From an uncultured Gammaproteobacteria bacterium (GTDB taxonomy: Bacteria; Patescibacteriota; Microgenomatia; UBA8517): a DNA stretch of 64,000 bases. The notes beneath the pieces were generated by a model, which saw only the letters and a program-made list of their open reading frames with translations, ran no database searches and was not told the DNA's origin. Of the stretch, positions 10,550 through 36,678 are shown one piece after another; within the stretch, counting starts at the first letter, position 1, and every line of letters starts with the position of its first letter. A program made the translations under genes and the position numbers. The stretch covers positions 75,705 to 139,704 of the forward strand of contig CAZRGC010000004.1 of assembly GCA_964599625.1 (NCBI GenBank), read 5' to 3'.

Positions 10550-10599
10550 AAATTAACTATGGGCGGAATTGTACACCCTATATTTTTAATTGTCAAATA

Positions 10600-11097
10600 C
10601 TATGAGATTTTAGTTGCAACTATTACAAATCTTTTTGTGTCGAAAACACCGCTACAAGTGTAAATAACTATTTTATTATCGGTGTTTTGATTTACAACGT
10701 CATAACTTTTTGGGTCAATTTCCTGAGTAAAATCCACCACATATTTTTTGACCGAATCCTTGTTGCGTATTTCAACAACCATCCCCGGTTTTACATTAAC
10801 CAAATTTCCCAAAATGCTATTCCAATTGTGGCCGTAGATTACGTTTTGGTGGATTGATGCTCCCCGCGAGTCAGGTTGCCATTCTCCGTTTTTTTGCACT
10901 GCAGGGTATATGTTTGTCAGGATTCCCACTTTGTCTATTGCCAGGACATAATCATGATTTGGTTTTGGTGTTTCGTTTTTATTGGTCGCAAGAATTTCTG
11001 TTACAACAACAGGAGTTTTTGACTCTTTTTGATAAAAAGAAAAAAGGGACAAACACAGAAGTGTTATGCCGAGAAGTTTCAGAAGCTTATTCAACAT
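10600..11097 (-). CDS. sortase-family transpeptidase (membrane-anchored), paralog of 8851..9438
   Basis: N-terminal TM, VIYGHN, IVIYTCSG and FDTKRFVIVA motifs. It overlaps the upstream substrate gene by 11 nt. Confidence 0.75.
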   Translation of the reverse strand: MLNKLLKLLGITLLCLSLFSFYQKESKTPVVVTEILATNKNETPKPNHDYVLAIDKVGILTNIYPAVQKNGEWQPDSRGASIHQNVIYGHNWNSILGNLVNVKPGMVVEIRNKDSVKKYVVDFTQEIDPKSYDVVNQNTDNKIVIYTCSGVFDTKRFVIVATKIS

Positions 11098-11836: not shown

Positions 11837-13117
11837 TTAGTTAAAAAGTGAATAGAAAAACTTTTGAATTTTGAAGAAAAAACCTTCGTTTCTGCTTTTT
11901 AGTATTACTACCACCTCCTTCCCTTCTTGGTTATTTGTTATACCAGTAGAATAAAAGCCTATGGCGTTTACGTTGGCCTTTACCGAGTCGCCTTCGTACG
12001 GCAAACTGAATCTGCCAAAGGCATCTGTTTTTGTGGAACTAAATGCGCTTAAAACTTCTACATCCTTTAGCGGTAATCCTGTTTGGGTTTTTACCATTCC
12101 ACTGAGGGCTTTTGGTTTATAAAAATGCTTAATTACTTCTGTAACCAATCTTGGCGTGCCATCGTCGTCCCAGAGTTTTGTTGAGCCGCCGAATCCGGTC
12201 CAGTAGTTAACCCCTATCAAGTTTCTGTTTTTTGAAAGCAAATCAAATGCACTTCTCACCCAGTTGGCTTGCTCATCTTGGGTCATGTCGCCATGAAGAT
12301 CTGGTATGGGGGCTCCAAACTCACCCACTACAATTTTCCCACCCGACCTTTCGGCTAGAGTGTTTATGTCATTATTCATTTTTTCGTAACTGGCTACATA
12401 GTGGTCTATAACAACAACTCCACCCAAAGCAGCAGTTGTTTCTTTGTTCATAATGAGGTTTGCAACGTCATAGTTCATTGGGAAGTAGTTGGTTTCCACA
12501 TTTTTATCAATCTGCCTAAAGGCCAATCTTCCAATCTGGTATTCATCAATCAAAAATTGTCTGAAGCCTTGTGTATCCCCTGTATGTCTTGGGTCGCCAG
12601 GCCCACCGTTTTCGCATTCTGTGCAGCTTGTGAATATGTCATCGTCTTCAAACAAATCTCCGTTGTCCACAATGAACTCTTTGAGCAGTCTTTTGTGTTC
12701 TTCCCTGCCAATCCGCTCAAATTCAAACCACTTTTCCCACCCCGAAAAATTTCCCCTGAACCAAATCTTTAGCCCATACTTTCGGGAAACATCAACCCAG
12801 CGTTTGAGGTACGGAATAAACTTTTTGTCATAAGGTGTCCCCAGGGCAATGTGTGTGACGCCTGTTTCTGCAATCTTTTTTACTTGGTCTTCGATTGTTT
12901 TGTCATAAGAGGAATCATTCAGATATTGTCCTGCGTGATCTCTTGAGTATTTAACGGTATCTATGGCTTGCATTTGCCAGAAAGAGGTTTTTGGAGAATT
13001 TTGGTTTGTGTCTGTGTTCTTTTTGGTTTTGGTAACTGCGAAAAGTCCCAGCACTAAAACAATTAAAGCCACAAAAAAAAGCGATTTATTTTTTTTCAAC
13101 ACAGCAGAATTATACAT
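11837..13117 (-). CDS. membrane-anchored (beta/alpha)8 glycoside hydrolase, GH5-like, with C-terminal carboxypeptidase-regulatory-like domain
   Basis: N-terminal TM, VVGEFGAP (GH5-type nucleophile context), a TECENGG acid/base-like region, and a C-terminal GLPLKDVEV...TDAFGRFSL CarboxypepD_reg-like pattern. Confidence 0.5.
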   Translation of the reverse strand: MYNSAVLKKNKSLFFVALIVLVLGLFAVTKTKKNTDTNQNSPKTSFWQMQAIDTVKYSRDHAGQYLNDSSYDKTIEDQVKKIAETGVTHIALGTPYDKKFIPYLKRWVDVSRKYGLKIWFRGNFSGWEKWFEFERIGREEHKRLLKEFIVDNGDLFEDDDIFTSCTECENGGPGDPRHTGDTQGFRQFLIDEYQIGRLAFRQIDKNVETNYFPMNYDVANLIMNKETTAALGGVVVIDHYVASYEKMNNDINTLAERSGGKIVVGEFGAPIPDLHGDMTQDEQANWVRSAFDLLSKNRNLIGVNYWTGFGGSTKLWDDDGTPRLVTEVIKHFYKPKALSGMVKTQTGLPLKDVEVLSAFSSTKTDAFGRFSLPYEGDSVKANVNAIGFYSTGITNNQEGKEVVVILKSRNEGFFFKIQKFFYSLFN

Positions 13118-13120
13118 CCT

Positions 13121-14782
13121 TTACTTGTTTATTAGCCCTTTGATTGGTTCTGTTTGAAGCTCCGGCAAGTATTGGTCATCCAGTTGGTATATGTCTGCAA
13201 ACGGATAACTGTCTACAAGTTTGTATTTTTTGAAACCTTCCGTTTTGCTTACACCTTTATATACAAGGTCCGCGTTGTCGTAAGTTCTCATCACAATCCA
13301 GCGCGCCCACCTGTCAGGAGAAGCCAAGGCATCTTCCCAATACTTCCCAGTACCTTCATGAATGAAACGGGACATTGGAAGATAGGATGAAAAGATAATT
13401 GCGTCGTGACTAGCTGCAGATATTAATATAAACCCTTTTTGGTCTTTTGCAGCGTTGTTCAAAAATCCGGACACTTCACTAACATTCTTTTGGCTGGACC
13501 CAACCCTTGCATCGTCAATTGTCACTGCGTCACCGTTTGCAAACGCAAAGAACATAACAAAAGCATAAAGTCCAATAAATACCCATCTTAAGTCTTTTAT
13601 CTTACCCACCAAATAACCCATGAATACGGCAAATGCAGGCATAAGCATTATTCCGTAGCGAACGTTGAACCAAGTATTTCCGGAAATTCCCTGGATAAAA
13701 AGAACCGAAAATCCGGCCACAAGGGATACTATATTAAAAGCCAATGGTGAGATTAGTGACAACGTTGCCAGTCTGGCCTCCCATTTAATATTTTTGTCCA
13801 GCCAGAGGGTTACCATTCCCAGAAAACCAAAAATAACAACAATCAAAATACAGTTATAAATAACCGAATACATATAAATCTGAGACGATAAAAGTATGTT
13901 TCCCTTTGTGGGGAGGTTCCCAGCAGCAAGCATTACTTGCTGTTGAGCATGTGCACTAAAAGGTCCGAGTGCAAAGTACAACGGGTCTTTAAAAATTATT
14001 AAATTCCAGCCAAACCACAGAACAATCCCAAAAGCACCCATGGTAAGGAACAGAACCGAAATACCTTCAGTTACTTTGTATCCTTTTTTGAATAGTGTAA
14101 TAAGTCCGACAATTCCTGCAGAAAACAAAAGCAAAAACCATCCGTCGTAGCGAACTAGTGTGGAAAGCATGACCCAAAACGAAGCTTTAACCAAATTTAC
14201 GATCTCATCACTTTTTGCCCAGTTAATAAGATAGTAACAGCCTGCTGTCATGGTAAACAAAAGAAGAGGCTCTGTCATTGCCGTGGATTGCAAGTACAAA
14301 ATATTCAAGTTTGCAGATGCAACCAATACTCCAAAAATCCTTCCCAAATAACCAACATTCAACTTTTCCAGAATTTTGTAAACTAATAGTCCTGTTCCCA
14401 CAAAAGACAACATGTTCCAAAACGCACCGGCAAATCCGCTGTGCCAGGCCCAATCGTTCCAGATAAGAGGAATCATGAGTACGTGATTTAATGGAAGCCA
14501 AACAGATCCTAATTGCGCAAGTCCGGGTTTAAGTCCCTCTACAACACGACGGCCTATATCCAAATGACTCCTGGCATCATTGTAATTAAGCCCCAATCCG
14601 TTTTGGAGATAGTGAATGAAATAGTATCCGCTTAGTAATGTTAGACATAGTCCAACAATCCAAAATAAATACTTCTTCACAATCTGTTCTATGTCTTCAA
14701 CTAACTTTGTATCAAAAGACACAGAAAGATTCGGTATTTTAGATGGTTTGTTTTTTGTTTGTTGGTTTTTATTTTTCTTCAT
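13121..14782 (-). CDS. polytopic GT-C fold glycosyltransferase (ArnT/PMT-like)
   Basis: >10 predicted TM helices, with an N-terminal loop DARSHLDIGRR...LGSVWLPLNHVL resembling the ArnT/PMT_2 first periplasmic loop. Confidence 0.6.
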   Translation of the reverse strand: MKKNKNQQTKNKPSKIPNLSVSFDTKLVEDIEQIVKKYLFWIVGLCLTLLSGYYFIHYLQNGLGLNYNDARSHLDIGRRVVEGLKPGLAQLGSVWLPLNHVLMIPLIWNDWAWHSGFAGAFWNMLSFVGTGLLVYKILEKLNVGYLGRIFGVLVASANLNILYLQSTAMTEPLLLFTMTAGCYYLINWAKSDEIVNLVKASFWVMLSTLVRYDGWFLLLFSAGIVGLITLFKKGYKVTEGISVLFLTMGAFGIVLWFGWNLIIFKDPLYFALGPFSAHAQQQVMLAAGNLPTKGNILLSSQIYMYSVIYNCILIVVIFGFLGMVTLWLDKNIKWEARLATLSLISPLAFNIVSLVAGFSVLFIQGISGNTWFNVRYGIMLMPAFAVFMGYLVGKIKDLRWVFIGLYAFVMFFAFANGDAVTIDDARVGSSQKNVSEVSGFLNNAAKDQKGFILISAASHDAIIFSSYLPMSRFIHEGTGKYWEDALASPDRWARWIVMRTYDNADLVYKGVSKTEGFKKYKLVDSYPFADIYQLDDQYLPELQTEPIKGLINK

Positions 14783-16262
14783 TTGGTTTTATTTTTATCC
14801 AGATCAATGATGTTCCGACGAGTGCAACGAGTCCATATATCGCCCAGTAGTATTGCCACCCGGTTACGAATTTGTTTGCATAGTTATTGAACACAAAAGA
14901 ATTGAGTTTGTTTTCGTTGAGCATCCTGATATTTATTCTGTAGTCATACTGCAATCCCAATCCTACCGCCTCAATTTTCGGTGGAATTACGTTTGTGGTA
15001 AGTGGTGCCAAAAGTGAAACTCCCAAGCTGTACAAAAATACCAGTGTAAAGATTAATTTTACAAAGAAGTTTTTATGTAGGTGGTTAAGGGCGAATCCGG
15101 CCAGTATACAAAGCTCGGGTAGTACTGCAATCATATATCTGCTTCCGAATGCCCATCCCCCATAAGGGTCACCAAACATTGTGTAAAGCGTCAAACAAGT
15201 TGCGGGAATAACCACCAATCCGATTTTTTCTTTCAACCCCAGTTTTTTGTATGCACCAAACAATGCGAACAAAGAAAGTAAAACGACAGGTGAATAAATT
15301 ACTATGCCGCGATCTTGGTTAACGGTGAAAGACTGAAAACCGTTTAACATGTTTCTTGTCTCCAGAGCCCCAACGCTTTCTCTTCCATCCTCGGGTGTTG
15401 CGTCTTCGACTGTTGTTTTAAGATCTTTAACTCTGGGAATGGAGTTACTCAAAACAGTCGGACTACCAAAGTGAATATAGTTGTAATACCCATACAGACC
15501 CATTAGACCCAAAAAGATAAACGGAGTTAATAAGTATTTCCATTTAAACGACAGACTGATCTTGTTTTTGATTTTTTCCAAGTTAAAACCCGAGAATGTA
15601 AAAATAATGGCAATCGGAAGGAATATAAACAGGTTTGGAAAATCAATATAAACGGCTACTGCATAAAGTACCCAAAAAATCATTGCGTCAAAGACTGAGT
15701 GATGTTTCTTGACTGTGGCAATATAAAGTCCCGAAAGAAGCAAAAATGCAGAAATCAAATGGGCATACAAAGTAACAGAATAACCCCATGCGTTTGTGGC
15801 AAAACCAAAAGCTAACCCTGCAAATATTGCAGTAGTCCAGGCCATGTTGAGACCTCTGGCGAATTTAATGATCATGAGGATGGTTAGGAAAGCAAATATG
15901 GTGGAAATCAGAAATGTGAATATTTGAGTAGCCCCAAGTTTCAAGCCCAGCAAGTATAGTGGTATAGCAAGAACGGATGCTCCTGGAGGAAAGAATGAGT
16001 AATAGTGTCCACCGATAAATCCGATGTCTGGAGTACCCATAGATGCATAATTATCTATTGCAAAAGTTCTATCGTTTACTAATGAAAGAATGATTGCGTA
16101 GCGGGATCGTTCTTGAGAAGTTTCAAAAGCAGATCCACTATTAAAAAGGGTGGTGTCGATTTGACTTGCTGTTGGCACATTCCAATTGCCCCTTAATGTA
16201 GATAAATACAAAAAGCAGCAATATATAGATATAAATATAAAAGTTAATATTTTATGTGTCAT
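14769..16262 (-). CDS. dolichyl-phosphate-mannose protein mannosyltransferase-like GT-C (PMT_2 family)
   Basis: ERSRYAIILSL...HYYSFFPPGASVLAIPLYLLG matches the PMT_2/ArnT DE-x-RYA...PP-L signature, followed by many TM helices. Confidence 0.7.
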   Translation of the reverse strand: MTHKILTFIFISIYCCFLYLSTLRGNWNVPTASQIDTTLFNSGSAFETSQERSRYAIILSLVNDRTFAIDNYASMGTPDIGFIGGHYYSFFPPGASVLAIPLYLLGLKLGATQIFTFLISTIFAFLTILMIIKFARGLNMAWTTAIFAGLAFGFATNAWGYSVTLYAHLISAFLLLSGLYIATVKKHHSVFDAMIFWVLYAVAVYIDFPNLFIFLPIAIIFTFSGFNLEKIKNKISLSFKWKYLLTPFIFLGLMGLYGYYNYIHFGSPTVLSNSIPRVKDLKTTVEDATPEDGRESVGALETRNMLNGFQSFTVNQDRGIVIYSPVVLLSLFALFGAYKKLGLKEKIGLVVIPATCLTLYTMFGDPYGGWAFGSRYMIAVLPELCILAGFALNHLHKNFFVKLIFTLVFLYSLGVSLLAPLTTNVIPPKIEAVGLGLQYDYRINIRMLNENKLNSFVFNNYANKFVTGWQYYWAIYGLVALVGTSLIWIKIKPNEEK

Positions 16263-17050
16263 TTGAAATAAGTAGCTAAGTAATGTTCTTTAATCTTTAA
16301 TAAACTCATGAAATATCTAGAAAAATTAAGTCCAGCAGGTGTCAAGAGCGCCTTAAAATTTTCTAGGGTAATTTTTCCTTCCATGGGGACCCTGTTTATT
16401 TTATGTTTGTCGATGGTCAACAGTTTTCCTCCGTCGATTGTTAAAGCATATCTATAGCCAGAATCTTGAACAAGATTGGTTATATCTTGATTATAGTATC
16501 CGTTCGGGTAAGCAAAATATGTAAAACTAGATTTAATTTCTCTTTGGAGCAGCTTGTAGTTTAACTTTTTCAAGCTTGTGTGTGTTTTGGTATGATATCC
16601 AAAACACCAACCTGCTTTTTTAAGTGTATAGATTTGTTTTTTAGTAAGCATTGGTTTGTTGTTATCAAGTACTTCTTTGTCTCTGTTTCTATAGTTACCT
16701 ATTATGAAAACTGTTGCAACTACACCATATCTTTTCATTATAGGAAAAGCATTGTTGTATATATCTTCGTAGCCATCGTCGAAAGTGATGCTGATTTGAG
16801 GTCTGCCTAACCGTGGCCCTTCTAAAATTTTATCAATTTTTACCACTCTGTAATTTTCGACAATATATTTTATTTGCTGTTCAAAATCAGCAACTGGTGT
16901 TGAAAAACGCCAGTCATCATCTGAGCATGAATGATAGCAAAGTATAACATCAGGCTTTTTTTTATTTTTGTAAATAAAGTTTGCTAAATTTAGCAAACTT
17001 AAGACGTTAAAATAAATTAACATTGCTATGTTTATTTTTTGGGTAATCAT
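16259..17050 (-). CDS. polysaccharide deacetylase (NodB/CE4 family)
   Basis: ISITFDDGYEDIYNNAFPIMKRYGVVATVF is the NodB motif 1/2 (TFDDG...). Confidence 0.75.
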   Translation of the reverse strand: MITQKINIAMLIYFNVLSLLNLANFIYKNKKKPDVILCYHSCSDDDWRFSTPVADFEQQIKYIVENYRVVKIDKILEGPRLGRPQISITFDDGYEDIYNNAFPIMKRYGVVATVFIIGNYRNRDKEVLDNNKPMLTKKQIYTLKKAGWCFGYHTKTHTSLKKLNYKLLQREIKSSFTYFAYPNGYYNQDITNLVQDSGYRYALTIDGGKLLTIDKHKINRVPMEGKITLENFKALLTPAGLNFSRYFMSLLKIKEHYLATYFK

Positions 17051-17799
17051 AATATTGACCTCTTAAACAATACGGCGCCTCTGTAAACAATTTTTGAAAG
17101 AAATATGTAACAAATATTCATTACAAAAAATAATGAAGTAATATATTGCAAGTTCATTGTGTGTGAGAAAAAATCTAGTATAAATATAATTATTAGCCGT
17201 AAAGCTATGTCGTCAAATATCCTTAATAAGGATTTAAAGTTATTAAGGCCCTTGCTTTCAACTTTAGACTTTTGATTCTCTTTTAAAGTTTCAAGCCATT
17301 TAATATCTAATATATAGCTGGTTGCTCCTACCATACCCAATATCAAATAAATATTGTTATTGCTTTGCGCGTATAGTCGAAGACTAAAGCTGATAATGAA
17401 TATGGAAGAAATTAGGGTGTGTAGAAAATTATCCAATATCTTTCCCCATACGAGGTTATTCTTGTAATATCGCGCGAGAGGCCCATCGACACAATCTAAG
17501 AATAAGGCAACCTCGTTTAATATCAATATTAATAAAAAGCTTAATTCTTTTCCATAAATTAACAACATACATCCTAAGAGTTGTAACAAGAACGATAGCA
17601 TAGTAACCATATTTGCTGAGATGCCTATTTTTGATAAGTGATAGGCTACTTCGGCTGCTTTCTCTCTATATAAAAAACGGTTTTCATATATGTCGCCACC
17701 CTTTTTAATATTTTTTGGTGAGTACCTATTAAAATCGTTTATAAATTTAGCTTTTGATGTTTTATTCATGTTTATTTGGTGCTCGAGGCTGTATACCAC
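17047..17799 (-). CDS. CDP-alcohol phosphatidyltransferase-family membrane protein
   Basis: DCVDGPLARYYKNNLVWGKILD fits D-x2-DG-x2-AR...G-x3-D. The protein has multiple TM helices. Confidence 0.55.
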   Translation of the reverse strand: MVYSLEHQINMNKTSKAKFINDFNRYSPKNIKKGGDIYENRFLYREKAAEVAYHLSKIGISANMVTMLSFLLQLLGCMLLIYGKELSFLLILILNEVALFLDCVDGPLARYYKNNLVWGKILDNFLHTLISSIFIISFSLRLYAQSNNNIYLILGMVGATSYILDIKWLETLKENQKSKVESKGLNNFKSLLRIFDDIALRLIIIFILDFFSHTMNLQYITSLFFVMNICYIFLSKIVYRGAVLFKRSIL

Positions 17800-18671
17800 T
17801 CGAGTTTGTATCTGCTAGAAATATTTTTATAAAAAGGAACTATGACTATGTTGATAACAATGGCCACTGATGTTTCTATTGGGTATTTTAAGAAGCTTTT
17901 GAATATGCTTTTTAGGTAAAACATGAATGGTCTTTTATACTCTTCTTCGACTATTTTTCCAAAGCGAGTTTTGTAGTTTATATTTATTGCTTGTGGGTTT
18001 GATCTGAAACATTGTTTAAGATAGTCTGGTAGACTTTTGGGTAATTTGTAAAATATCTTTGCCTCTTCGCAGTAAGAGAACTCCTTTTTATCTTTGGTCG
18101 CTGTAAAGTATATAAAATCGTCTTCGTTTAGTGCTTTTTCTGAAAAATCGATAGATTTTATATAGCGACGTCTAATTGCCATTCCGCCACCAGTAAAGCA
18201 AAATGGATTTTTGTAGTTTCTCAACTTCCTTGACTCATCAAAGACCAGAAACGTTGTGTATACAACTTTTTCAAAGAAAGTTACTGGTAAAAAAGGCCTG
18301 GTATTTGCACCGACAAAAGTAATTTTTTTATCATCTCTAAACTTCTTAATAATGTTTGAAATAACCTTGATGTTTCCTAATTTTTCGTCAGCATCGAAAA
18401 CAACCAGAATATCACCGCTGCATTTTTCAATAATTTTCTTTAAACCGCCAGACTTGCCTTGTCTTGTTTTGCTTTCAATAATTTTAATCTTTTTGTTTTT
18501 TAAATCTTTAATCTTCTCGACTGTTCTGTCAGTACAGTTATCACAGTGAATAATTATCTCTTTAAGAATGTAGTTCGAGGTTTTTTGATTAAGAATATCT
18601 TTGAGTATATTTTGAATATTCCCTTCTTCGTTGTAGGCACAGATGCCGACTGTCACTGTATTTTTTTTCAT
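17772..18671 (-). CDS. glycosyltransferase family 2
   Basis: VGICAYNEEGNIQNIL...DNCTDRT...FDADE (DxD) gives a GT-A fold signature. Confidence 0.8.
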   Translation of the reverse strand: MKKNTVTVGICAYNEEGNIQNILKDILNQKTSNYILKEIIIHCDNCTDRTVEKIKDLKNKKIKIIESKTRQGKSGGLKKIIEKCSGDILVVFDADEKLGNIKVISNIIKKFRDDKKITFVGANTRPFLPVTFFEKVVYTTFLVFDESRKLRNYKNPFCFTGGGMAIRRRYIKSIDFSEKALNEDDFIYFTATKDKKEFSYCEEAKIFYKLPKSLPDYLKQCFRSNPQAININYKTRFGKIVEEEYKRPFMFYLKSIFKSFLKYPIETSVAIVINIVIVPFYKNISSRYKLEWYTASSTK

Positions 18672-19816
18672 AATCCTGAAAAGAAATTGTTTATATTTTC
18701 AACAATTAAGTCTTGGTCATCTTTCGAAATCTGTGCAAACAAAGGAAGTCTTAGCAGAGTGTCGTTTATATCGTTTGTAACCGGAAAGTCTTCTTGTTTA
18801 TATCCCAAGTTTTGTCCTACGGGGCTTGAGTGAAGCGGTACGTAATGAGCGACTGCGCCAATTTCTCTGGATCTCAGAAAGTCCATAAGTGCGTTTCTTA
18901 CTTCCGCATTTGGTAAAAGAATAAAGAATATGTGTGCATTATGTTCCTGGCCCTCCGGGATTGTCGGAAGTGTTAGCTTTCCTTTTTGCTCCAAACTTTT
19001 GAGCTGATCGTGATAATAGTTGTATTTATCAACTCTGAGTCTGGTTATTTCTTCTTCCATTTCCAGTTGTGCATACAAGAAGGCTGCTAGCATGTCGCTC
19101 GGAAGATAACTGCCTCCTATTTCTACCCATGTATACTTATCTATAACACCTCTTAAAAATTTAGAACGATTAGTGCCTTTTTCTCTTAGAATTTCTGCTT
19201 TTTCTATAGTTTCGCTATCCGGGTTATTAATTAGCAAAGCTCCACCTTCTCCTGAAACAATATTTTTTGTACCGTGGAAACTCAAACATCCGAAGTCTCC
19301 GATTGTGCCCAGATATTTACCCTTGTACTTACTGCCTATTGCTTGTGCTGCATCCTCTATAACTTTAAGATTGTTCTTCTTGGCCAAATCCATTATTTTA
19401 TCCATGTCGCAGGAGACTCCGGCATAATGAACAACCATAATTGCCTTTGTCTTTGGGGTTATGGCTTTTTCAACTTCGATCGGATCTATGTTTATTGTTT
19501 TTGGATCAACATCCACAAACTTTATTACAACCCCTTTTTCCAAAAGGATTGCATTGGCCGTTGAGGAAAAAGTGAAGGATGGCGCAATAACCTCATCACC
19601 CTTTTTGAGATCCAGCAGTTTTACTGCCATCTCCAAAGCAGTTGTGCACGACGTGGTCAATAGCACTTTTGGGATTTTGTATTTTTCCTCGAACCACCTG
19701 TGGACAAGCTTGGTATATTTTCCGTCACCGGCTGTGTCTAAACCATTGTCGATAATATCTTTTATATACTCGATTTCTTTCCCTGTTATATATGGTTTGC
19801 TGAATGGTATTTTCAT
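18668..19816 (-). CDS. DegT/DnrJ/EryC1/StrS-family PLP-dependent sugar aminotransferase
   Basis: GKEIEYIKDIIDNG...TSCTTALEMA...SFHGTKNI (the Lys in the SFH-x-x-K context). 382 aa, a typical length. Confidence 0.85.
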   Translation of the reverse strand: MKIPFSKPYITGKEIEYIKDIIDNGLDTAGDGKYTKLVHRWFEEKYKIPKVLLTTSCTTALEMAVKLLDLKKGDEVIAPSFTFSSTANAILLEKGVVIKFVDVDPKTINIDPIEVEKAITPKTKAIMVVHYAGVSCDMDKIMDLAKKNNLKVIEDAAQAIGSKYKGKYLGTIGDFGCLSFHGTKNIVSGEGGALLINNPDSETIEKAEILREKGTNRSKFLRGVIDKYTWVEIGGSYLPSDMLAAFLYAQLEMEEEITRLRVDKYNYYHDQLKSLEQKGKLTLPTIPEGQEHNAHIFFILLPNAEVRNALMDFLRSREIGAVAHYVPLHSSPVGQNLGYKQEDFPVTNDINDTLLRLPLFAQISKDDQDLIVENINNFFSGL

Positions 19817-20910
19817 TTTTTATTTTCTTTTTTAATTATTTCCTCAAAAAAGTCAGACATCATTTTTGCCACATTTGGCCATTTGAATTTCTTGGCATAA
19901 TTCCTGGCAAAAATTTTCATGCGTGATAGCTTAGCCGATTTGCTTGCATTTAGCAATAATTGTCCGTATTCTCGGACATTAAAGGCTTTGGCTTGGAAAG
20001 AAAACTCCGGTTTTAACCACCCGAATTCGGGAATGTCAAAAGTTACTAATGGAAGACCTGCTGCAATTGCTTCAATTGAGAAAAGCGGCAGATTGTCATA
20101 TCTCGAAGGAAAAGCTACCAAATGAGCATTGGCCAGAAGATCCATCTTCCTCTCTCCTTTTACGGTTCCTACCATGGTAACTTTGTTTTCCAACTTGAGA
20201 TCGGATATTAATCTTTTGACCTTTTCTGCGTCCGGACCACCCCCGGCAATTATCAACGGATATTTTATTTTTTCGGAAACTGAACCATATGCTTTCAGGA
20301 GCAAATCTATTCCTTTTTGTGCAATATCTAATCTGCCCAAGTACAATATATATTTGTTTGACTTGTGTTTTATCTTAAAATATTCATCCCCTACCCCTTG
20401 TGGAATCATCTTTGACAACGCGGTTGAGTTGTATTTTCTGAACAGTTTTTCGTCGGTATCTATGTACGGCATAAAATATTTGTAAAGTTTGCAACCTAAT
20501 GCCTCAAACCAAACAAAAGGTAGGTGATATTTTTCTGAAAACTGTTTCCCGGCAAAAACTGTTGGGAGGGCCACTACTGGTATTTTTGTGAATAACGGTG
20601 AAAACAAACTTGATATTGGTGCAGTAAAACATTCAACAATAATATCTGCTTTAAGCCTTGCCACTGTAAACGGTAAAAGTAAGATGTAGAAAGCATTGTT
20701 TACTTGAATATTTCCGGTGTTTATGCCGATATGCTTGTATGTAATCCCGTTTTCGGTTCTGTCTTTATAACCAGGATATTTGCTACAAATAGATACAACT
20801 TTATGTCCCATTTTCGCCAACCTACCACCGACCTCGTATGTCGCACGGGCCTGCCCCGCAGCCAGTAGAGGATTTTTTATATCATCAAGATCCAAGAATA
20901 TTATTTTCAT
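19813..20910 (-). CDS. glycosyltransferase family 4 (GT-B)
   Basis: C-terminal GRLDIAQKGIDLL...FPSRYDNLPLFSIEAIAAGLPLV (E-x7-E-like GT4 motif). Confidence 0.75.
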   Translation of the reverse strand: MKIIFLDLDDIKNPLLAAGQARATYEVGGRLAKMGHKVVSICSKYPGYKDRTENGITYKHIGINTGNIQVNNAFYILLLPFTVARLKADIIVECFTAPISSLFSPLFTKIPVVALPTVFAGKQFSEKYHLPFVWFEALGCKLYKYFMPYIDTDEKLFRKYNSTALSKMIPQGVGDEYFKIKHKSNKYILYLGRLDIAQKGIDLLLKAYGSVSEKIKYPLIIAGGGPDAEKVKRLISDLKLENKVTMVGTVKGERKMDLLANAHLVAFPSRYDNLPLFSIEAIAAGLPLVTFDIPEFGWLKPEFSFQAKAFNVREYGQLLLNASKSAKLSRMKIFARNYAKKFKWPNVAKMMSDFFEEIIKKENKK

Positions 20911-21860
20911 ATTGTTTTCTTTATTCCATCTTCAAGACTTGTGTTTGCTGTCCAGCCAAAAACACTTTTTGCCAGGTCTGCGTTCAACACACTTCTATCC
21001 TGACCAACCCCGGAGTTCTTGTCGTATTCAAAATTAATCTTGAAATCAAAGTCTTTTGAGATCATGTTCAATATTTGATTAATGGTCGACTCTTTCCCGG
21101 TTGATACGTTGTAGATCATCGACTTTTGTATAGCCTTTGGGAAATCTGTGAAACTTATTTTTTCGCAAAGATCTATAAGATCGTCAACATAAATAAAATC
21201 TCTGGTTTGTTCTCCGTCGCCGTCGATTACGACTTTTTCACCTTCTTTTATTTGATTTATGAACTTATTTATTGCACCCACAATCTCGGACTTTCCACCA
21301 ACTCCATATACGTTTGCAAATCTCAGTACGATCCCATTCATGCCGATCGAGTTGTAGTACTGAATGTATTTCTCAATAGCCAGTTTTGAGCATGCATAAG
21401 GTGAGGAGGGACTTTCTTTTTGTGTCTCTACTTGCCCCCCATTTGGGACAAAGTCACCGTATACTCCTGAAGTAGAAAAGAAAACTAAGTTCTTTATCTT
21501 TAGTTTTTGCATGCTTTCCAAAAGGTTTAAAGAACCTATTACATTTTCACCTGCAAACTTCAAAGGGTTTTTGAGAGATTCTTTAACGCTCTTTAGTGCT
21601 GCAAGATGGAATACAACATCCGGCTTTTCTGTCTCTAATATCTTGGTAAAGTCTTTATCCATTATGCTGTTTTCATAAAACTTTGCTTCATTGTTCAGGT
21701 TGCTTTTAAAGCCGCTCGACAGGTTATCAACAACGACAACTCTGTTCCCTAGATCCAACATTCTTTGAACCAATTTGGGACCAATATAACCTGCTCCTCC
21801 TGTGATCAAAATTGTTTTTTTCATATTATTTTTGTTAGTTCCCCTGCACTGTTGTCCCAT
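20907..21860 (-). CDS. NAD-dependent epimerase/dehydratase (UDP-sugar 4-epimerase-like SDR)
   Basis: ILITGGAGYIGPKLV Rossmann motif, with YACSK (Y-x3-K catalytic). Confidence 0.85.
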   Translation of the reverse strand: MGQQCRGTNKNNMKKTILITGGAGYIGPKLVQRMLDLGNRVVVVDNLSSGFKSNLNNEAKFYENSIMDKDFTKILETEKPDVVFHLAALKSVKESLKNPLKFAGENVIGSLNLLESMQKLKIKNLVFFSTSGVYGDFVPNGGQVETQKESPSSPYACSKLAIEKYIQYYNSIGMNGIVLRFANVYGVGGKSEIVGAINKFINQIKEGEKVVIDGDGEQTRDFIYVDDLIDLCEKISFTDFPKAIQKSMIYNVSTGKESTINQILNMISKDFDFKINFEYDKNSGVGQDRSVLNADLAKSVFGWTANTSLEDGIKKTI

Positions 21861-24800
21861 TCAAATTTCTTTGCCCATTCGATACTGTCTTTGTCCATTC
21901 TTTGCCTGGTTCTGTTGTTTTTGAGCAAAGTAACTATATTCTCTGCAAATTCTTCGGAATTGCCGTAGGGCACAAGGACACCTGAATGTGGGTTGTGCAC
22001 AGCATCCCTTAGCCCCGCCACATTGCTGGCAACAACAGGAGTTCCACAAGCGTTGGCTTCTATTGTTGTTATGCCCCAACCTTCGATGAGTGAAGGGTTA
22101 ACAAAAAGCCAGGCCCTTTGATAGAGTTTTATTTTTTCTTCATCTGATACTTTTCCGGTAAATTCTATTTTGTCTGCAAGCCCAAGTTTCTTTGCCAACT
22201 TCATCAAACGTTTTTTATCTTGGCCTTCTCCTGCTATGACAATTTGTACTTTAGGAACTTTTTCCAGAACCACTTTCGCGGCGCGAATCAAAACATCAAT
22301 GGATTTTTGTGGGGTAAGGCGACCCAAGTAGAGAATCATTGGACGTGCCGATTTTTTGGCAGGTTTGTATTTATTCAAATCTACGCCGTTGTAAATGATG
22401 TGAGGCTCTTTGGTAGTGAGTTTGTGCTCCAAAATATCCGCTTTGGAAGACGGAGATACTGTAATAACCTCGGTGTTTTTGTAAACCATGGGCATTATGC
22501 GTTTCTCCAAAAACTGCCCTATCCAACTGAGTGGGGGTACTAGTTTCATTCGGAACACCTCCTGATGTACATGATGAATCAAAAGGAATATTTTCTTGCT
22601 GGAATATAACGGGGTAAAAAATGGAATTCCGTTTTCGCTGTCTATGATTACATCAAAATACTTGTGAAGCTTCAGGACATAATACAAAAATGCCCAAAGA
22701 TAAACTGTATAAAAACCTCCGCGGCGGATTATTTGTACACCTTCGACTTTTTCGTTCCTTGGGTTTTTTCGGTCGTTGCCGCAAAAAATAGTGACCTTGT
22801 AACCCTTTACAACAAGCCGTTTGGCTATTTCGTGTATGTAGACCTCTGCTCCCCCGCTCCAAACATGCTTTGTATCGCGCCAATTGAATATAAGAATACG
22901 CGGGTGGCCTGTTGTGTTTTCTGTAGATTTGGGGCCGACAAGTGTAAAAAGACCCAAAAAATCGGCCAAATTAGTAAGGATGGAATAGACGGCATCGTGA
23001 TAAAAGTTAAGAGCAACCATGCTTCCCAGGTAGATGGCCCCACCCAAAAGCATTGCCCAGACGATGTCTCCAATACCTCTGTGAATAATTGCAATACCTG
23101 CAATCTGCACCAATGAAAATACAAATCCTAGATAAGAAAATATATGTCGCCCTTTTACCTGGTGATAGTTAACTATTGTTACAGCAACTGTTTGCAAAAG
23201 TATTGCAAATGTATACAAGGGAAGATATTGGATTACGGAATTGACCTTGTCGCCAAAAAGTATGGGTGCAGTAATCCAACCAAAAACTCCAAATGCCAAG
23301 AAGGCTAGTACCGACATTCCGGTGGTTGCCCCCAGTATCTTGTAAAAAGTATTTTGGGAACTTACCCCCTCACCTTCGTTTTTGCTTACAATTGGTGTAA
23401 CAAATCCGCTAAGCAGTGACCCGATCATGTAAACCATCTTTCCGGCCAAAGACAGAATTGCGTAACGCCCAGCATCCTCGGGTGAGAGATATATTTTTGC
23501 CGCCACTACATCCAGGCTCAGAAACGCTATTGTTGAAATTTTGTTTGCAACCGAAGATGCAAAAAACTTAGCAGGGAACTTTTCTTCAGATTTTTCGATT
23601 TCTACAACTTTTGATTTAAGGTTAAGAATAAACAACCAACCGATTGCAAATGAGCAAAACATTGAAATTGGGATACTTAGGTAAACCCACTCATGGAGCC
23701 CAAGTTGAACAAAAAGGACACTGAAAATAAGTTTTGCCAATGCCTCTCCGATCACAGCCACCCCCGAGATCACGAACAGCTGATTACCCGACACAAACCC
23801 TCCATCAACACTTGCAACAAACCCCATTACCCAAACAGGAACAAAGATCAAAAACGGAAGGTATGTATCTGATTTAAAAACATTTGTAAGTATTGGGGTT
23901 AAGATTAGCCAAACCACTGCCAACACAGTTGAAGTCTTGGCCATGGAACCGCGCACCTTCTGCCAATATTCTTTAACAGGGGTTTGGTATTTACCAAACA
24001 AATACCCAGACTTGTAGGTAACAGTTCTTGCCAAAGCAGACAGTGGAATGCTTGTTATGTAAACAAAACTCCCAACAAGGCCAATCAGACCAAAATCTTC
24101 CAGGTCAAGTTTCCTCCCAAGGTAGGCGTTATACAAAAAATTGAGAACGTTGCCGACCATTGAGGCAAATATCAAAAACGCTCCGGAAACATAATCTTTG
24201 TTTAAGGGGATTCCAAACTTGAAGTTAACAAACCTGGCAACTTTAACTTCATCCTTTTTGGAAAGGTCCAAATCCAGTCCGTGAATTGTTTTTTCCCAAA
24301 AATGCGGCTTAAATATCAGCTGGTAAACCGCAACAAAGGCTCCGATTGATGCCAGGAGCCAATAAATGGGAACAAAGTAAATGTATTTGATAATCTGCCA
24401 TTGTCCCCTTTTGGCGGCACCGATCATGTAGTAGTACAAATACAAAAAATTCCCAAACACTGCCGAGGTTGCTGCTATATAAAAAACAACAGGCGGAAAT
24501 AAAGATTCAATTTGCGGACCTACAAATCTGTAGAGTGCAAAATAAGCAATTGTCATTGCCCACAAAAATGGGTTTATAAGCATGAAGCTGATACGAAGAC
24601 CCGACACAAGTTGGAAAACAAAAAAATGACCTTTGCCAGTTTTGGCGAATTCCAAAGACTTTCGGTTGTGAACAAGGTATGTTTGCAGATAACCTTTTAT
24701 CCATCTGCTTCTTTGACGGATCCAGTTTTTGACATTACTATTGGCTTCCTCCAAAGTCACAGAATCAAAAATGGCTGTTTTGTAGCCTGCTCTAAAAAGT

Positions 24801-26389
24801 CTTATGCCAAGGTCTGCATCCTCCGTAACGTTAAAAGAATCCCAACCCTGCAAGTCCCGCAAAGCCTGTGTACGGAAGTGGTTGCTTGTTCCCCCCAGGG
24901 GAATTGTGGTTTCGATTGATTGCAGGCCGGGCAAAATTACGTCGAACCACAAAGAATATTCCGCCGTAAAAAGCCTGGTTAAAAGGTTTTGATGAGGATT
25001 AAAGTAGTTGAGCTTTGCCTGCAAACAAAACACGTCCATCTTGCTTTCCTGGAACGACAAATATGCCTTTTTGAGTTGTGTGGGTTCGGGCCTGTCCTCC
25101 GCATCGTAAATGACAATAAATTCTCCTGTGGCAATTTTTAATCCGTAATTGCAGGCTTTTGGCTTTGTTTTTGGTTGAGAGTCGGGAACAATTGCGATTT
25201 TAAAATAATCGGGAAGGTCAAGCTTTTTTGCCGCTTCGATTGTGTTCTCGTCATCTTCCTCCAGGAGTAAAAGCACCTCGAGTTTGTCTTTTGGATAGTC
25301 CAGTTTTCCGATGTTTTCCACAAAAGTGGGAAGCACTTTGGCTTCGCGGTACAAAGGACAGAGGATTGTATAGCGTGGGAGATAGCCGTCTTTAATATTT
25401 TTTAGGTGATCATCTGAAATTTTGATTTCGGGAGGAAAATGCAAACTTTTAAGTACCAGAAATAGGCCGAAAAATAGGTCCAAAAAGTATATAAATGACA
25501 AAATGGATATAAACAAAATAAGCGTTGATTTTGTTGCTATCAAAAGGCCTAAAAGTAATGCCGTGATCGCACCAACTATCAGAACTTTTTGCCAAGGTGT
25601 GAATGTAACGAAAGCGGATTTGGTAATATGCAGGTCTGTGTGGGTGGTGAACTTTTTGGCTTTGTATGCAAAAGTTCCCTCTTCAATTTTTATTATCCTT
25701 TTTTTGCCGAACTTGGCTTTTACTGCACTCTTGACTACTTGGTATGTTCCGGAAACTAGTGTGATTTTGGATTTGCCTTTTGCTCTTTCTGCAAAATCGA
25801 TACTAACGCATCCCATCGACTCCCCTGTTTGTTTGGCTGCGTCAACCAGGGATATATCAAAACTCCAGGGTGTCAAAGTCGCCGGGTCGATATAGTTTGC
25901 TAGCTTTCGTTTGAAAAGTTTAAGTCCAGATTGGATATCACATGGGACACCCATAAGGATGTTTCCAATTACAAATCTACTTATTTTGGAGACAAACTTT
26001 CTCCATAGTTTTTCCGAATTTCTGCCTCTGTTGGCGGTAACTATTCCCTGGTCTTTTGTCTTGGCAAGCGCATACATCTCCGGAATTGCCTCTGGCGGAT
26101 ACTGCAAATCACCGTCAATCATGGCAACGTACTCCGCGTCACTGATACTGGCACCCTGGAGTATGGAAAAAGCTTTCCCCCGCTTTCCGTGTTTGAGTTG
26201 ATACTTTATAGGATATTTTTTGGAAAGTTTTTGGATAACATCTTTTGTATTATCTTTGGAAAAGTCATCAATAAAGACTATGCCGTAATCAATACCTGCA
26301 GATTTGAGACTTGTATCTATCCTTTTGACCAGATCCTGGACATTTTCGGCCTCGTCCATCACTGGGACAACAACATCTATTTGTTTCAT
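21821..26389 (-). CDS. 1522-aa multidomain fusion: GT2 (DPM1-like) + processive GT2 (QxxRW) + Wzx/MATE-like polytopic domain + GT4
   Basis: aa 1-230 VVVPVMDEAENV...IDGD (GT2). aa ~330-620 YDAED...QRSRWIKG (cellulose/chitin-synthase-like GT2). aa ~690-1130 has ~12 TM helices (flippase-like). aa ~1150-1522 EGWGITTIEANACGTPVVAS (GT4). It is one continuous ORF on the minus strand. Confidence 0.75.
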   Translation of the reverse strand: MKQIDVVVPVMDEAENVQDLVKRIDTSLKSAGIDYGIVFIDDFSKDNTKDVIQKLSKKYPIKYQLKHGKRGKAFSILQGASISDAEYVAMIDGDLQYPPEAIPEMYALAKTKDQGIVTANRGRNSEKLWRKFVSKISRFVIGNILMGVPCDIQSGLKLFKRKLANYIDPATLTPWSFDISLVDAAKQTGESMGCVSIDFAERAKGKSKITLVSGTYQVVKSAVKAKFGKKRIIKIEEGTFAYKAKKFTTHTDLHITKSAFVTFTPWQKVLIVGAITALLLGLLIATKSTLILFISILSFIYFLDLFFGLFLVLKSLHFPPEIKISDDHLKNIKDGYLPRYTILCPLYREAKVLPTFVENIGKLDYPKDKLEVLLLLEEDDENTIEAAKKLDLPDYFKIAIVPDSQPKTKPKACNYGLKIATGEFIVIYDAEDRPEPTQLKKAYLSFQESKMDVFCLQAKLNYFNPHQNLLTRLFTAEYSLWFDVILPGLQSIETTIPLGGTSNHFRTQALRDLQGWDSFNVTEDADLGIRLFRAGYKTAIFDSVTLEEANSNVKNWIRQRSRWIKGYLQTYLVHNRKSLEFAKTGKGHFFVFQLVSGLRISFMLINPFLWAMTIAYFALYRFVGPQIESLFPPVVFYIAATSAVFGNFLYLYYYMIGAAKRGQWQIIKYIYFVPIYWLLASIGAFVAVYQLIFKPHFWEKTIHGLDLDLSKKDEVKVARFVNFKFGIPLNKDYVSGAFLIFASMVGNVLNFLYNAYLGRKLDLEDFGLIGLVGSFVYITSIPLSALARTVTYKSGYLFGKYQTPVKEYWQKVRGSMAKTSTVLAVVWLILTPILTNVFKSDTYLPFLIFVPVWVMGFVASVDGGFVSGNQLFVISGVAVIGEALAKLIFSVLFVQLGLHEWVYLSIPISMFCSFAIGWLFILNLKSKVVEIEKSEEKFPAKFFASSVANKISTIAFLSLDVVAAKIYLSPEDAGRYAILSLAGKMVYMIGSLLSGFVTPIVSKNEGEGVSSQNTFYKILGATTGMSVLAFLAFGVFGWITAPILFGDKVNSVIQYLPLYTFAILLQTVAVTIVNYHQVKGRHIFSYLGFVFSLVQIAGIAIIHRGIGDIVWAMLLGGAIYLGSMVALNFYHDAVYSILTNLADFLGLFTLVGPKSTENTTGHPRILIFNWRDTKHVWSGGAEVYIHEIAKRLVVKGYKVTIFCGNDRKNPRNEKVEGVQIIRRGGFYTVYLWAFLYYVLKLHKYFDVIIDSENGIPFFTPLYSSKKIFLLIHHVHQEVFRMKLVPPLSWIGQFLEKRIMPMVYKNTEVITVSPSSKADILEHKLTTKEPHIIYNGVDLNKYKPAKKSARPMILYLGRLTPQKSIDVLIRAAKVVLEKVPKVQIVIAGEGQDKKRLMKLAKKLGLADKIEFTGKVSDEEKIKLYQRAWLFVNPSLIEGWGITTIEANACGTPVVASNVAGLRDAVHNPHSGVLVPYGNSEEFAENIVTLLKNNRTRQRMDKDSIEWAKKFEWDNSAGELTKII

Positions 26390-26560
26390 CTTTTATTTGC
26401 AAAAAATCTAAAGCGATTTGACTTAATAAACGCCTGAAGCTAATTAGAATATAGGATATATTTTCCTTTTAGTAATTATTTTCAAGTTTGAGGCTATAAT
26501 TTACAGACTACAGGCACGCTTGTCAAGAAGAAATTTATCCTGTAATGAAGGTTTTTGTGT

Positions 26561-29218: not shown

Positions 29219-31180
<1,962 letters not shown>

Positions 31181-33594: not shown

Positions 33595-33601
33595 AAATAA
33601 G

Positions 33602-33636
33602 GTGGATAAAAGTTTGCTAAAGCAAACTGCGTCCAC
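33602..33636 (+). promoter_or_regulatory. nested perfect hairpin (AGTTTGCT-AA-AGCAAACT inside GTGGA...TCCAC) between pilB and pilT
   Basis: The palindrome is seen directly. No downstream T-run, so it is not a canonical intrinsic terminator. Confidence 0.4.
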
Positions 33637-34798: not shown

Positions 34799-34799
34799 T

Positions 34800-36008: not shown

Positions 36009-36032
36009 ATCTTTGCAAGTTTGTAAAAGCAC

Positions 36033-36677: not shown

Positions 36678-36678
36678 A

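Follow-up and report, generated by a model that had tools for sequence, protein, structure and literature searches.

Here we describe a gene cluster in a 64,000-nucleotide stretch of patescibacterial DNA (NCBI GenBank assembly GCA_964599625.1, contig CAZRGC010000004.1, positions 75,705 to 139,704; GTDB lineage Microgenomatia, UBA8517), which we call the window. We found that an unbroken run of ten open reading frames (ORFs) on its minus strand, from 26389 to 11837, together with the genes for a small secreted protein and a sortase that follow it, forms a conserved core into which a species-variable cassette of sugar genes is inserted. The core encodes a giant fusion protein (BIG), two membrane proteins (GT-C1 and GT-C2), a membrane-anchored protein that is mostly extracytoplasmic (P426), a protein with a predicted LAxTG sorting signal (P226) and the sortase. 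The reading that we prefer, tentatively and with somewhat less than even confidence, is that the region encodes a GT-C-dependent cell-surface glycoconjugate line that works on a lipid carrier, is coupled to sortase display and is conserved across Microgenomates.

The envelope of the Candidate Phyla Radiation (CPR, or Patescibacteria) is almost unknown, and the cells are thought to be attached to hosts, so that their surface bears on their lifestyle. Microgenomates have a near-ubiquitous sortase and many hypothetical membrane families to which no function has been assigned (Méheust et al. 2019, PMC6744442), and our literature search returned no description of this cluster in CPR or Microgenomates. 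The original prediction, made from the letters of the window, had proposed a combined island for protein O-glycosylation and display. A surface-glycan locus coupled to a sortase agrees with what we found; the PMT-type O-mannosylation that it invoked is not supported.

Gene order and sortase substrates

The ten ORFs are joined by successive overlaps of 40, 4, 4, 4, 28, 4, 4 and 14 nt and then by a 3-nt gap. They had been described as eleven genes with 4–40-nt overlaps; the run itself stands, with ten ORFs and one junction that is a gap. The 40-nt overlap between BIG and the short-chain dehydrogenase/reductase (SDR) gene probably arises from choosing the longest ORF, since an SDR start at Met13 gives a 4-nt overlap and fits the 304-aa orthologue in the closest relative (locus L001). 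Packing on the same strand extends beyond 11837. After a 69-nt gap come P226 and a sortase that overlaps it by 11 nt, and after a further 50-nt gap a lineage-specific secreted protein (PT390), a second sortase that overlaps PT390 by 62 nt, a 517-nt gap and gyrA. The best sigma-70-like matches of the strand sit in the gaps before BIG (a hexamer pair at 26498..26526, minus strand), P226 (11787–11815, minus strand, 11/12) and PT390 (10568–10596, minus strand, 11/12), all three being matches to the consensus only. The total in the region is not raised (49 against 47.1 in shuffles), and the promoter and terminator scans overall are at shuffle level, so the placement of the best matches in intergenic gaps is only suggestive.

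Related loci were collected with peptide patterns and alignment of GT-C2. Relatives of this protein were found in 291 stretches of a species-representative genome set (one genome per species), the best 80 of which were kept, and ORFs called mechanically in six frames in 82 non-redundant loci were searched with the window proteins and then with family hidden Markov models. Most of the records are metagenome bins; the named ones include Woese-, Ames-, Levy-, Gottesman-, Shapiro-, Curtiss-, Davies- and Chisholmbacteria. Nearly everywhere in these 82 loci the order is BIG, variable cassette, GT-C1, GT-C2, P426, P226 homologue and sortase. A BIG ORF or a cut C-terminal fragment of it lies 5′ of the core in most related loci, and BIG is intact in 35 of the 57 that have at least 9 kb of upstream sequence. 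GT-C1 stands immediately 5′ of GT-C2 in 64–66 of 73 loci, and a P426 homologue lies 3′ of GT-C2 in 66 of 76. A P226 homologue is found 3′ of the core, within 6–7 kb of GT-C2, in 57 of 67 loci; a sortase lies within the same distance in 57 of 67; and both are present 3′ of the core in 55 of 67, usually right behind P426. This gene order is beyond chance, as it recurs in about 80 other species genomes. By a rough estimate that assumes 1–3 sortases per ~1-Mb genome, a sortase would lie within 7 kb by chance in a few percent of cases or less. The outer flanks differ among the four loci whose flanks were read, indicating that in those loci the block moves as a unit.

Many bins with the cluster are titled "uncultured Gammaproteobacteria" or "Pseudomonadales", and single ones Bathyarchaeia, Eisenbacteria and Paceibacterota; probably the records are mislabelled or the bins contaminated. 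Two bins have two copies of the core on separate contigs (L012 and L013; L022 and L066), which could be either true duplication or strain mixture. The core reaches P226 and the sortase in L012, L013 and L022 and ends after GT-C2 in L066.

P226 (11087..11767, minus strand; 226 aa) is a small secreted protein without a match in Pfam or NCBIfam. Its C-terminus consists of VLGLATTG, a hydrophobic stretch and KSRKNVE, and 61 of 62 P226 homologues (~200 aa) have the pattern V-L-G-L-A-x-T-G-(N/D) ahead of a hydrophobic helix and a tail of basic residues. From this pattern, the predicted sorting signal is of the LAxTG type, and P226 is the predicted conserved sortase substrate of the cluster. Many of the homologues have a poly-Ser, poly-Thr or GDGRSD-repeat stalk ahead of the motif. 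The first sortase (10600..11097, minus strand; 165 aa) scores 43.8 bits against PF04203 and the second (8851..9438, minus strand; 195 aa) 69.6 bits, both above the cut-off of 26.6, and both score under all NCBIfam sortase-class cut-offs.

The downstream sortase substrates had been predicted to carry Pro/Thr-rich linkers. This is true of PT390 (9377..10549, minus strand; 390 aa), which has a ~75-aa linker of P, T, S and A, an 18-nt repeat in its gene at 9744–9790 and a signal-like C-terminal end (VLGASTMAGTG, a hydrophobic stretch and a K-rich tail) in which MAGTG is a variant ending. It is not true of P226, which has a short Gly-rich stalk. True PT390 homologues occur in L001 and L008 only, which rules out PT390 as a conserved partner of the cluster. 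Across genomes, a comparison that the original prediction had suggested, the operon is kept where the Pro/Thr-rich substrate is absent, and a different sortase substrate, P226, is conserved alongside it.

P226 and PT390 share a 39-aa Cys-bracketed module that is 67% identical between P226 aa 144–182 (11222–11338) and PT390 aa 296–334 (9548–9664). The module, C.N..G.QTSLP..YHFDNDG.NCL.YE.GGP, lies just upstream of the sorting signals, and most other P226 homologues lack it. A further ORF at 4102–4839, whose position fits a LysM/YkuD gene called in L001, has the Pro/Thr-rich linker TASPTRTLVPTATTTKTLVPTNTPRVVTPTPSPTPTF, so such linkers are not restricted to sortase substrates. On a Woesebacteria chromosome (L005, 12968–18609), a sortase directly follows the P426 homologue and is itself followed by different putative substrates of 252 aa (with a faint Peptidase_M73 match), 351 aa and 925 aa (with Big_3_5). 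There is a hint that the sortase may be a steadier partner of the core than any single substrate.

The fusion protein, the GT-C pair and P426

BIG (21821..26389, minus strand; 1522 aa) is a fusion of four modules, three of which are assigned by Pfam and NCBIfam to the glycosyltransferase families GT2, GT2 and GT4. The N-terminal module (aa 1–320) is a polyprenyl-phosphate sugar synthase-like GT2 with a two-helix transmembrane (TM) hairpin (268–286 and 291–309, by hydropathy). Among PDB sequences, aa 3–209 best match the P. furiosus Dol-P-Man synthase (DPMS; 5mlz, E 5.8e-22), with ArnC at E about 3e-15 and GtrB sll0501 at E 1e-10. The module thus has the homologous GT-A domain and the C-terminal TM hairpin of polyprenyl-phosphate glycosyltransferases of the DPMS/GtrB/ArnC/PgfS type, and its sequence assigns it as lipid-phosphate sugar synthase-like, of the Dol-P-Man-synthase/ArnC/GtrB type. 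On the PgfS model NF047588 it scores 76 bits, the cut-off being 500.

The second GT2 (aa ~330–700) matches PF13632 and PF13641 and contains DAED (429), TED (522) and QRSRW (559), with TM helices at about 590–700. These are the features of a processive β-glycan synthase (D, D, TED, Q(Q/R)xRW and trailing TM helices), and the domain is predicted to be of this kind; the PgaC and CelA models of NCBIfam match it, but far under their cut-offs. The third module (aa ~720–1130) has about 10–12 TM helices and is putatively Wzx/MOP-flippase-like: 3 of 14 orthologous BIG segments match PF01943 Polysacc_synt, the best at E 6.3e-6, and the profile of the module has no PDB sequence match. The last module (aa 1179–1520) is a GT4 by Pfam. 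Its top NCBIfam match is MshA, an inositol-phosphate glycosyltransferase, at 140.8 bits against a cut-off of 462.5, and the GT4 modules also match Agl16 weakly in NCBIfam. Judged by these matches, the cluster appears to encode a maker of lipid-phosphate sugar and, probably, a flippase, which is what GT-C1 and GT-C2 would need.

The same fusion, with a QxxRW GT2 of the cellulose/PNAG type, could instead be the synthase and exporter of a wall-linked or secreted polysaccharide. We consider this the main rival explanation, possible but doubtful. GT-C1 and GT-C2 would then do no more than decorate it with side-chain sugars taken from lipid-phosphate sugar, in the manner of YfhO or GacL on teichoic acids and rhamnopolysaccharides, and the sortase and P226 would be envelope neighbours or glycan-binding partners, not acceptors. 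The DAED/TED/QRSRW motifs and the PgaC and CelA matches, all under cut-off, argue for a polysaccharide, as does the position of the Wzx-like module next to the GT4, a junction that recalls the PelG/PelF pair. GT-C enzymes of the YfhO family have been reported to glycosylate teichoic acids (10.1101/2024.05.05.592596). However, a polysaccharide leaves the presence of P226 and a sortase 3′ of the core in those 55 loci unexplained.

GT-C1 (14769..16262, minus strand; 497 aa) is a multi-pass membrane protein, and GT-C2 (13121..14782, minus strand; 553 aa) is a membrane protein with a ~130-aa C-terminal soluble domain. Neither matches a single Pfam family even at E ≤ 10, including PF02366 (PMT), PF13231 (PMT_2) and YfhO, and no PDB chain, ArnT and Pmt1/2/4 included, is matched by phmmer or by the family profiles. 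By sequence, therefore, membership in PMT/PMT_2 (GT39), ArnT (GT83) or the YfhO family fails for both. Their sole family match is a weak one, under threshold, to NCBIfam NF047440, and both families occur solely in Patescibacteria/Microgenomates records, without a precomputed Pfam domain. When protein representatives were searched with the GT-C1 profile, 388 clusters were found at E ≤ 1e-30 and 4039 at E ≤ 1e-10, which is a large superfamily; there was no link to a named family, the 150 matches listed being all close relatives.

The AlphaFold2 model of GT-C1 (pLDDT 94.5, from a 52-sequence alignment) has ArnT as its best Foldseek match in the PDB (5f15, E 6.9e-5, probability 1.00, TM-score 0.45, 13% identity), with further matches to Pmt4, ALG3, AglB, AftB, Emb, ALG9 and AftA, and every one of the top 20 is a GT-C enzyme or a fold relative. 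The GT-C2 model (pLDDT 79.6) matches ALG12, STT3/OST (oligosaccharyltransferase), ArnT, PglB, DPY19 and AglB with TM-scores of 0.48–0.57 and 9–15% identity (STT3, 0.52–0.57); all 19 matches at E ≤ 1e-3 are GT-C, and Pmt4 ranks 20th. On these models, both proteins are predicted to share the generic GT-C fold and to be equally distant from ArnT, OST, ALG, Aft/Emb and Pmt (TM-scores 0.4–0.57, 9–15% identity), the structural identity to PMT and ArnT being 10–14%. The original prediction had called the pair PMT_2/ArnT-like and had proposed a structural comparison. The fold part of that claim is borne out by AlphaFold2 and Foldseek, the family part finds no Pfam or PDB sequence match, and in the comparison PMT is no nearer to either protein than are the enzymes of lipid A, arabinan and ALG or the oligosaccharyltransferases.

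GT-C enzymes such as ArnT, PMT, STT3, ALG and Emb have catalytic acidic residues in their first extracytoplasmic loop. In GT-C1, the loop after TM1 has the invariant residues E47, E51 and D79, and a second invariant motif, D365-P-x-G-G-W-A-F-G-S-R-Y376, lies further on. In GT-C2, D69 and E82 are invariant and D75 is at least 90% conserved, all in the loop after TM1, and the sequence YNDARSHL.IGRRVVE in that loop is nearly invariant; GT-C2 is unusually conserved, with a mean column identity of 66% over 51 sequences across candidate phyla. The positive-inside rule predicts that the loop after TM1 should face outward in both proteins; the N-terminus of GT-C2 is basic. No member of either family (51 GT-C2 and 52 GT-C1 sequences) has the GT66/oligosaccharyltransferase motif WWDxG, searched as W[WYF]D.G. 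GT-C1 and GT-C2 are distantly related paralogues, with an hhalign probability of 62% (E 7e-5), that have in common a W.F..RY motif ahead of a late TM helix. Some metagenome gene calls join GT-C1 to another part, which may be genuine fusion or the result of read-through in gene calling; the partners are NodB with an APH/choline-kinase domain, PIG-L with GNAT, GT4, GT2, another copy of GT-C1, and a region whose C-terminal CarboxypepD_reg resembles the one in P426.

It is thus quite improbable that GT-C1 and GT-C2 are PMT/ArnT-family protein O-mannosyltransferases that act on Pro/Thr-rich linkers of sortase substrates. Such a role would suit the GT-C fold, for which Foldseek lists ArnT and Pmt4 as matches, the Dol-P-Man synthase as the best solved relative of the BIG N-terminal module, and the linkers of PT390 and of the putative YkuD protein at 4102–4839. 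However, PF02366 and PF13231 are not matched, the solved PMT and ArnT structures are not found by sequence or profile, and Pmt4 ranks only 20th for GT-C2. The substrates do not fit either, as true PT390 homologues occur in only two related loci though the cluster is conserved, and the conserved substrate has a stalk that is Gly-rich here and not Pro/Thr-rich. Moreover, mannose-activation genes are absent from the cluster, and a variable multi-transferase cassette is more than O-mannosylation requires.

P426 (11837..13117, minus strand; 426 aa) is built from an N-terminal TM helix, a ~290-aa domain with invariant acidic motifs, a CarboxypepD_reg β-sandwich and a C-terminal amphipathic helix. 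The motifs FRGN..GWE.WF, E.ENGG.GDPR, GEFG.P and NYW..GGST are invariant in the family, 20 of 23 members of which match CarboxypepD_reg. It had been taken for a GH5-like membrane hydrolase, an assignment that the searches do not show: the window protein matches no glycoside hydrolase in Pfam or the PDB and only the C-terminal CarboxypepD_reg sandwich is recognised, its N-terminal domain has no PDB sequence match, and the family profile matches no TIM-barrel structure in the PDB at E ≤ 10. PF11790 Glyco_hydro_cc is matched weakly by 2 of 23 family members (E 0.015). If the product were a wall-linked or secreted polysaccharide, P426 and the NodB protein of the cassette could act like PgaB or PelA, as a deacetylase plus hydrolase, but the Pfam and PDB sequence searches did not demonstrate a hydrolase fold in P426.

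The variable cassette and neighbouring genes

The cassette lies between BIG and GT-C1, on the minus strand. The family calls that the original prediction had made for the fusion, the SDR epimerase, GT4, DegT, GT2, CDP-alcohol phosphotransferase(-like) and NodB proteins are all confirmed by Pfam and NCBIfam. The SDR protein (20907..21860, with the likely true start, Met13, at 21824) is a sugar-nucleotide 4-epimerase-type enzyme that scores 200.8 bits against PF01370 and stays under the cut-offs of both the GalE and RmlB models. It has GGAGYIG, YxxxK and STSGVYG and lacks the Asp-Glu pair of 4,6-dehydratases, a residue pattern that looks like that of a 4-epimerase. The missing pair rules it out as a dTDP-glucose 4,6-dehydratase, which would feed the aminotransferase, and no such dehydratase was identified within the cluster. 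Next comes a GT4 glycosyltransferase (19813..20910; PF00534, 87.8 bits) with no equivalog-level match.

The DegT protein (18668..19816) passes equivalog cut-offs as a WecE-type sugar 4-aminotransferase, with 542.9 bits on NF008687 (cut-off 375) and 490.3 bits on TIGR02379 (cut-off 434.85), whereas the ArnB model gives it no more than 200.5 bits against a cut-off of 631. It is therefore predicted to be the aminotransferase for a dTDP-4-amino-4,6-dideoxyhexose, and homologues are found in just seven other non-redundant loci. The GT2 behind it (17772..18671; 299 aa, PF00535, 84.9 bits, GC 0.32) gives weak PDB matches to DPMS and GtrB (about 8e-8) and belongs to a ~300-aa type present in 1–5 copies per locus elsewhere. 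The last cassette gene encodes a NodB/CE4 de-N-acetylase (16259..17050; PF01522, 72.5 bits) with one N-terminal TM helix and intact metal-site motifs TFDDG and HTKTH.

Between the GT2 and NodB lies a CDP-alcohol phosphotransferase-like membrane protein (17047..17799; PF01066, 33.6 bits, cut-off 22; GC 0.31). Its signature, DxxDGxxARx8GxxxDxxxH (...GKILDNFLH), has His for the final Asp of DxxDGxxARx7-8GxxxDxxxD. This protein could mean that the product is a lipoglycan or glycolipid of the phosphatidylinositol-mannoside/lipomannan (PIM/LM) type, in which the phosphotransferase makes an inositol-phosphate-type anchor, a GT4 primes the glycan and the GT-C enzymes extend it outside. The top NCBIfam match of the protein is archaetidylinositol-phosphate synthase and that of the BIG GT4 module is MshA, and a lipid-phosphate sugar synthase with GT-C enzymes is also the logic of mycobacterial LM and lipoarabinomannan (LAM) synthesis. 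Nevertheless, we consider this the least probable of the explanations weighed here. The two matches are far under their cut-offs (51.6 against 180 bits for the phosphotransferase; the MshA score is given above), the signature lacks its final Asp, and the gene has no homologue in any other locus, including that of an 84%-identical relative. The rest of the cluster is conserved without it, which suggests that the function is kept in the relatives.

Elsewhere the cassette contains GT2, GT4, NodB, PIG-L, methyltransferase, choline-kinase/APH-like, SDR and DegT genes. Neither the phosphotransferase-like gene nor NodB is part of the core, since the first is found in no other locus and the second in 23 of the 57 loci with enough upstream sequence. 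Here, cassette genes have a GC content of 0.31–0.39, against 0.40–0.41 in the core genes, and the GT2, phosphotransferase-like and NodB genes (16259–18671) are at 0.31–0.32. At the equivalent position, the 84%-identical relative has a NodB protein of 563 aa whose N-terminal part differs. The low GC, the absence of the middle gene from that relative and its different NodB suggest a recent exchange of cassette genes at 16259–18671.

Several features of the cassette also bear on the polysaccharide explanation. PgaB and IcaB are the top NCBIfam matches of NodB. Choline and phospho-alcohol decorations are typical of teichoic-acid-like polymers, and cassettes elsewhere include choline-kinase-like/APH genes, and this one a CDP-alcohol phosphotransferase-like gene. 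Against this, NodB is not a core gene, and a separate TagA/WecG-type cluster at 46–64 kb of the window could supply a wall polymer.

That second cluster for glycans or wall polymers (46408–61365) lies in a low-GC stretch (0.34–0.39). It contains a GalE-like SDR (52276–53226), a TagA/WecG-family transferase (54066–54809), two GT4 genes (54802–55929 and 60205–61365), an alkaline-phosphatase-type phosphodiesterase (55938–57950), a sulfatase-superfamily protein (58691–60193) for which arylsulfatase is the top NCBIfam match and EptA and LtaS are weaker ones, and three ORFs without a family match. The studied region is flanked by gyrA (5700–8333) and gyrB (29219–31168). A PilB-type T2SSE ATPase (31837–33594, plus strand) opens a plus-strand block at 31837–41247, in which tightly packed ORFs follow it; to call this a type IV pilus cluster would be no more than a guess.

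A possible pathway and its known counterparts

In the lipid-carrier pathway that we prefer, the N-terminal module of BIG would put a sugar on polyprenyl phosphate at the cytoplasmic face of the membrane. The QxxRW GT2, the GT4 module and the cassette transferases would then assemble or lengthen the glycan, using here an epimerised UDP-sugar, a 4-amino-4,6-dideoxyhexose (WecE-type), a de-N-acetylated N-acetylhexosamine (NodB) and perhaps a phospho-alcohol substituent. The Wzx-like segment of BIG would flip the lipid-linked sugar or glycan, and outside the membrane GT-C1 and GT-C2 would pass it to an acceptor, with P426 processing or positioning the product. P226, once glycosylated, would be fixed to the wall by the adjacent sortase. 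We favour the co-conserved LAxTG protein P226 as the likely acceptor because its neighbourhood is kept across divergent lineages, and because there are precedents in the S. mutans Pgf, streptococcal GtrB/PgtC2 and A. oris GspA systems discussed below. When genes stay neighbours over such divergent lineages, this predicts well that they are functionally linked. PT390 and other secreted proteins whose linkers are rich in Ser, Thr and Pro are possibly further acceptors.

A number of points weigh against this reading. No result here identifies the acceptor, and an initiating phosphoglycosyl transferase was not found in the cluster. The TM segment of the window's own BIG (aa 701–1160) has no Pfam match at E ≤ 1, PF01943 included. 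The frequencies given above describe a sample selected through GT-C2 and that sample only. The enrichment of Ser and Thr in the P226 family is modest (median Ser+Thr 0.25 in the last 40 residues, 0.195 elsewhere), and in the short stalk of the window's P226 the fraction is 0.12; these fractions rule out a strong Ser/Thr-rich stalk as a universal P226 trait. Finally, the QxxRW GT2, the Wzx-like and GT4 fusion, NodB and a possible hydrolase suit a free or wall-linked polysaccharide equally well. One could also speculate that the sortase joins P226 to a free amine of the glycan, but the amine-generating genes are not conserved.

An Agl-like variant, in which Microgenomates would have an en-bloc protein glycosylation pathway of their own, seems improbable to us, though less so than O-mannosylation. 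Here the DPMS-like module would start an oligosaccharide on a lipid monophosphate, the rest of the fusion and the cassette would extend it and the built-in Wzx-like segment would flip it. GT-C2 would be a novel type of oligosaccharyltransferase that has no WWDxG, GT-C1 would add a final sugar taken from a lipid-phosphate sugar, and the acceptor P226 would be fixed by the sortase as the main surface glycoprotein.

If the lipid-carrier pathway is correct, one hypothesis covers several proteins that lack a Pfam family (the GT-C1 and GT-C2 families, P426 and P226) and the neighbouring sortase. From the variable cassette one would then expect surface glycans that differ between strains, much as O-antigens or capsules do, and this could bear on host and phage recognition. 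Should the LAxTG protein prove to be the acceptor, GT-C enzymes would be needed to glycosylate a sortase substrate in a lineage remote from Firmicutes and Actinobacteria; should it be a wall polymer instead, the locus is more ordinary.

Some of the closest parallels are found in streptococci. In the S. mutans Pgf system and the streptococcal GtrB/PgtC2 system, GT-A and GT-C enzymes glycosylate LPXTG adhesins and Ser/Thr-rich regions outside the membrane (10.1101/2024.05.05.592596; PMC5856776). Like Pgf (PgfS, PgfE, PgfM1 and PgfM2), whose genes lie beside those of sortase-anchored adhesins, the cluster described here combines a predicted lipid-phosphate sugar synthase, an epimerase and two GT-C-fold proteins beside predicted sortase substrates. 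It differs in that PgfM1, PgfM2 and the PgtC2 of S. pyogenes and S. pneumoniae belong to the YfhO family, whereas GT-C1 and GT-C2 match no Pfam model. Unlike in Pgf, the synthase is fused to three more modules, the cassette is variable and has multiple transferases, the motif is LAxTG, and glycosylation is a prediction. In A. oris, the ~25-kDa GspA first receives a glycopolymer, after which SrtA, the housekeeping sortase, attaches it to the wall, with the glycosylation gene adjacent (PMC6381275). P226, at 226 aa, likewise lies between glycan genes and a sortase, as in the GspA/LcpA/SrtA arrangement. However, A. oris relies for the transfer on an LCP phosphotransferase; our cluster showed no LCP gene, and GT-C enzymes stand in its place.

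The Arn pathway of Gram-negative bacteria (ArnB, ArnC, ArnD and ArnT) resembles the cluster in that an aminotransferase of the DegT type and a GT2 that puts the sugar on undecaprenyl phosphate work together with a NodB-type deacylase and a GT-C transferase. Of the solved structures, ArnC is among the best matches of the BIG N-terminal module and ArnT among those of the GT-C proteins. The acceptor in Arn is lipid A, which is not expected in a Gram-positive-type CPR cell. Unlike Arn, the cluster has no ArnA-like formyltransferase or decarboxylase, its aminotransferase is of the WecE type, and DegT and NodB are cassette genes and not core genes.

The archaeal Agl pathway of N-glycosylation (AglJ/AglD, a series of GT2 enzymes, AglR, AglS and AglB) modifies a surface protein. 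Presumably it has in common with the cluster a synthase of Dol-P-sugar, a set of GT2 enzymes of ~300 aa, a flippase of the Wzx-like kind and a pair of GT-C enzymes. In Agl, one of the pair is the oligosaccharyltransferase and the other adds a sugar from a lipid-phosphate sugar; GT-C2 resembles STT3, AglB and PglB at the TM-scores given above (0.48–0.57). In contrast to Agl, neither GT-C family has WWDxG, the soluble domain is much smaller, and P226 showed no conserved sequon. Actinobacterial PMT/Ppm1 O-mannosylation likewise combines a lipid-phosphate sugar synthase with a GT-C enzyme, and PMT targets secreted Pro/Thr-rich proteins, but here there is no PMT or PMT_2 membership by sequence, and the Pro/Thr-rich substrate is not conserved with the cluster. 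Taken together, the locus most resembles the Pgf/GtrB-PgtC2, Arn or archaeal Agl pathways, with membership only at the level of the GT-C fold. What is new are the sequence families of the GT-C proteins, the fusion of four modules and the conserved association with a sortase and its substrate; the underlying logic is familiar.

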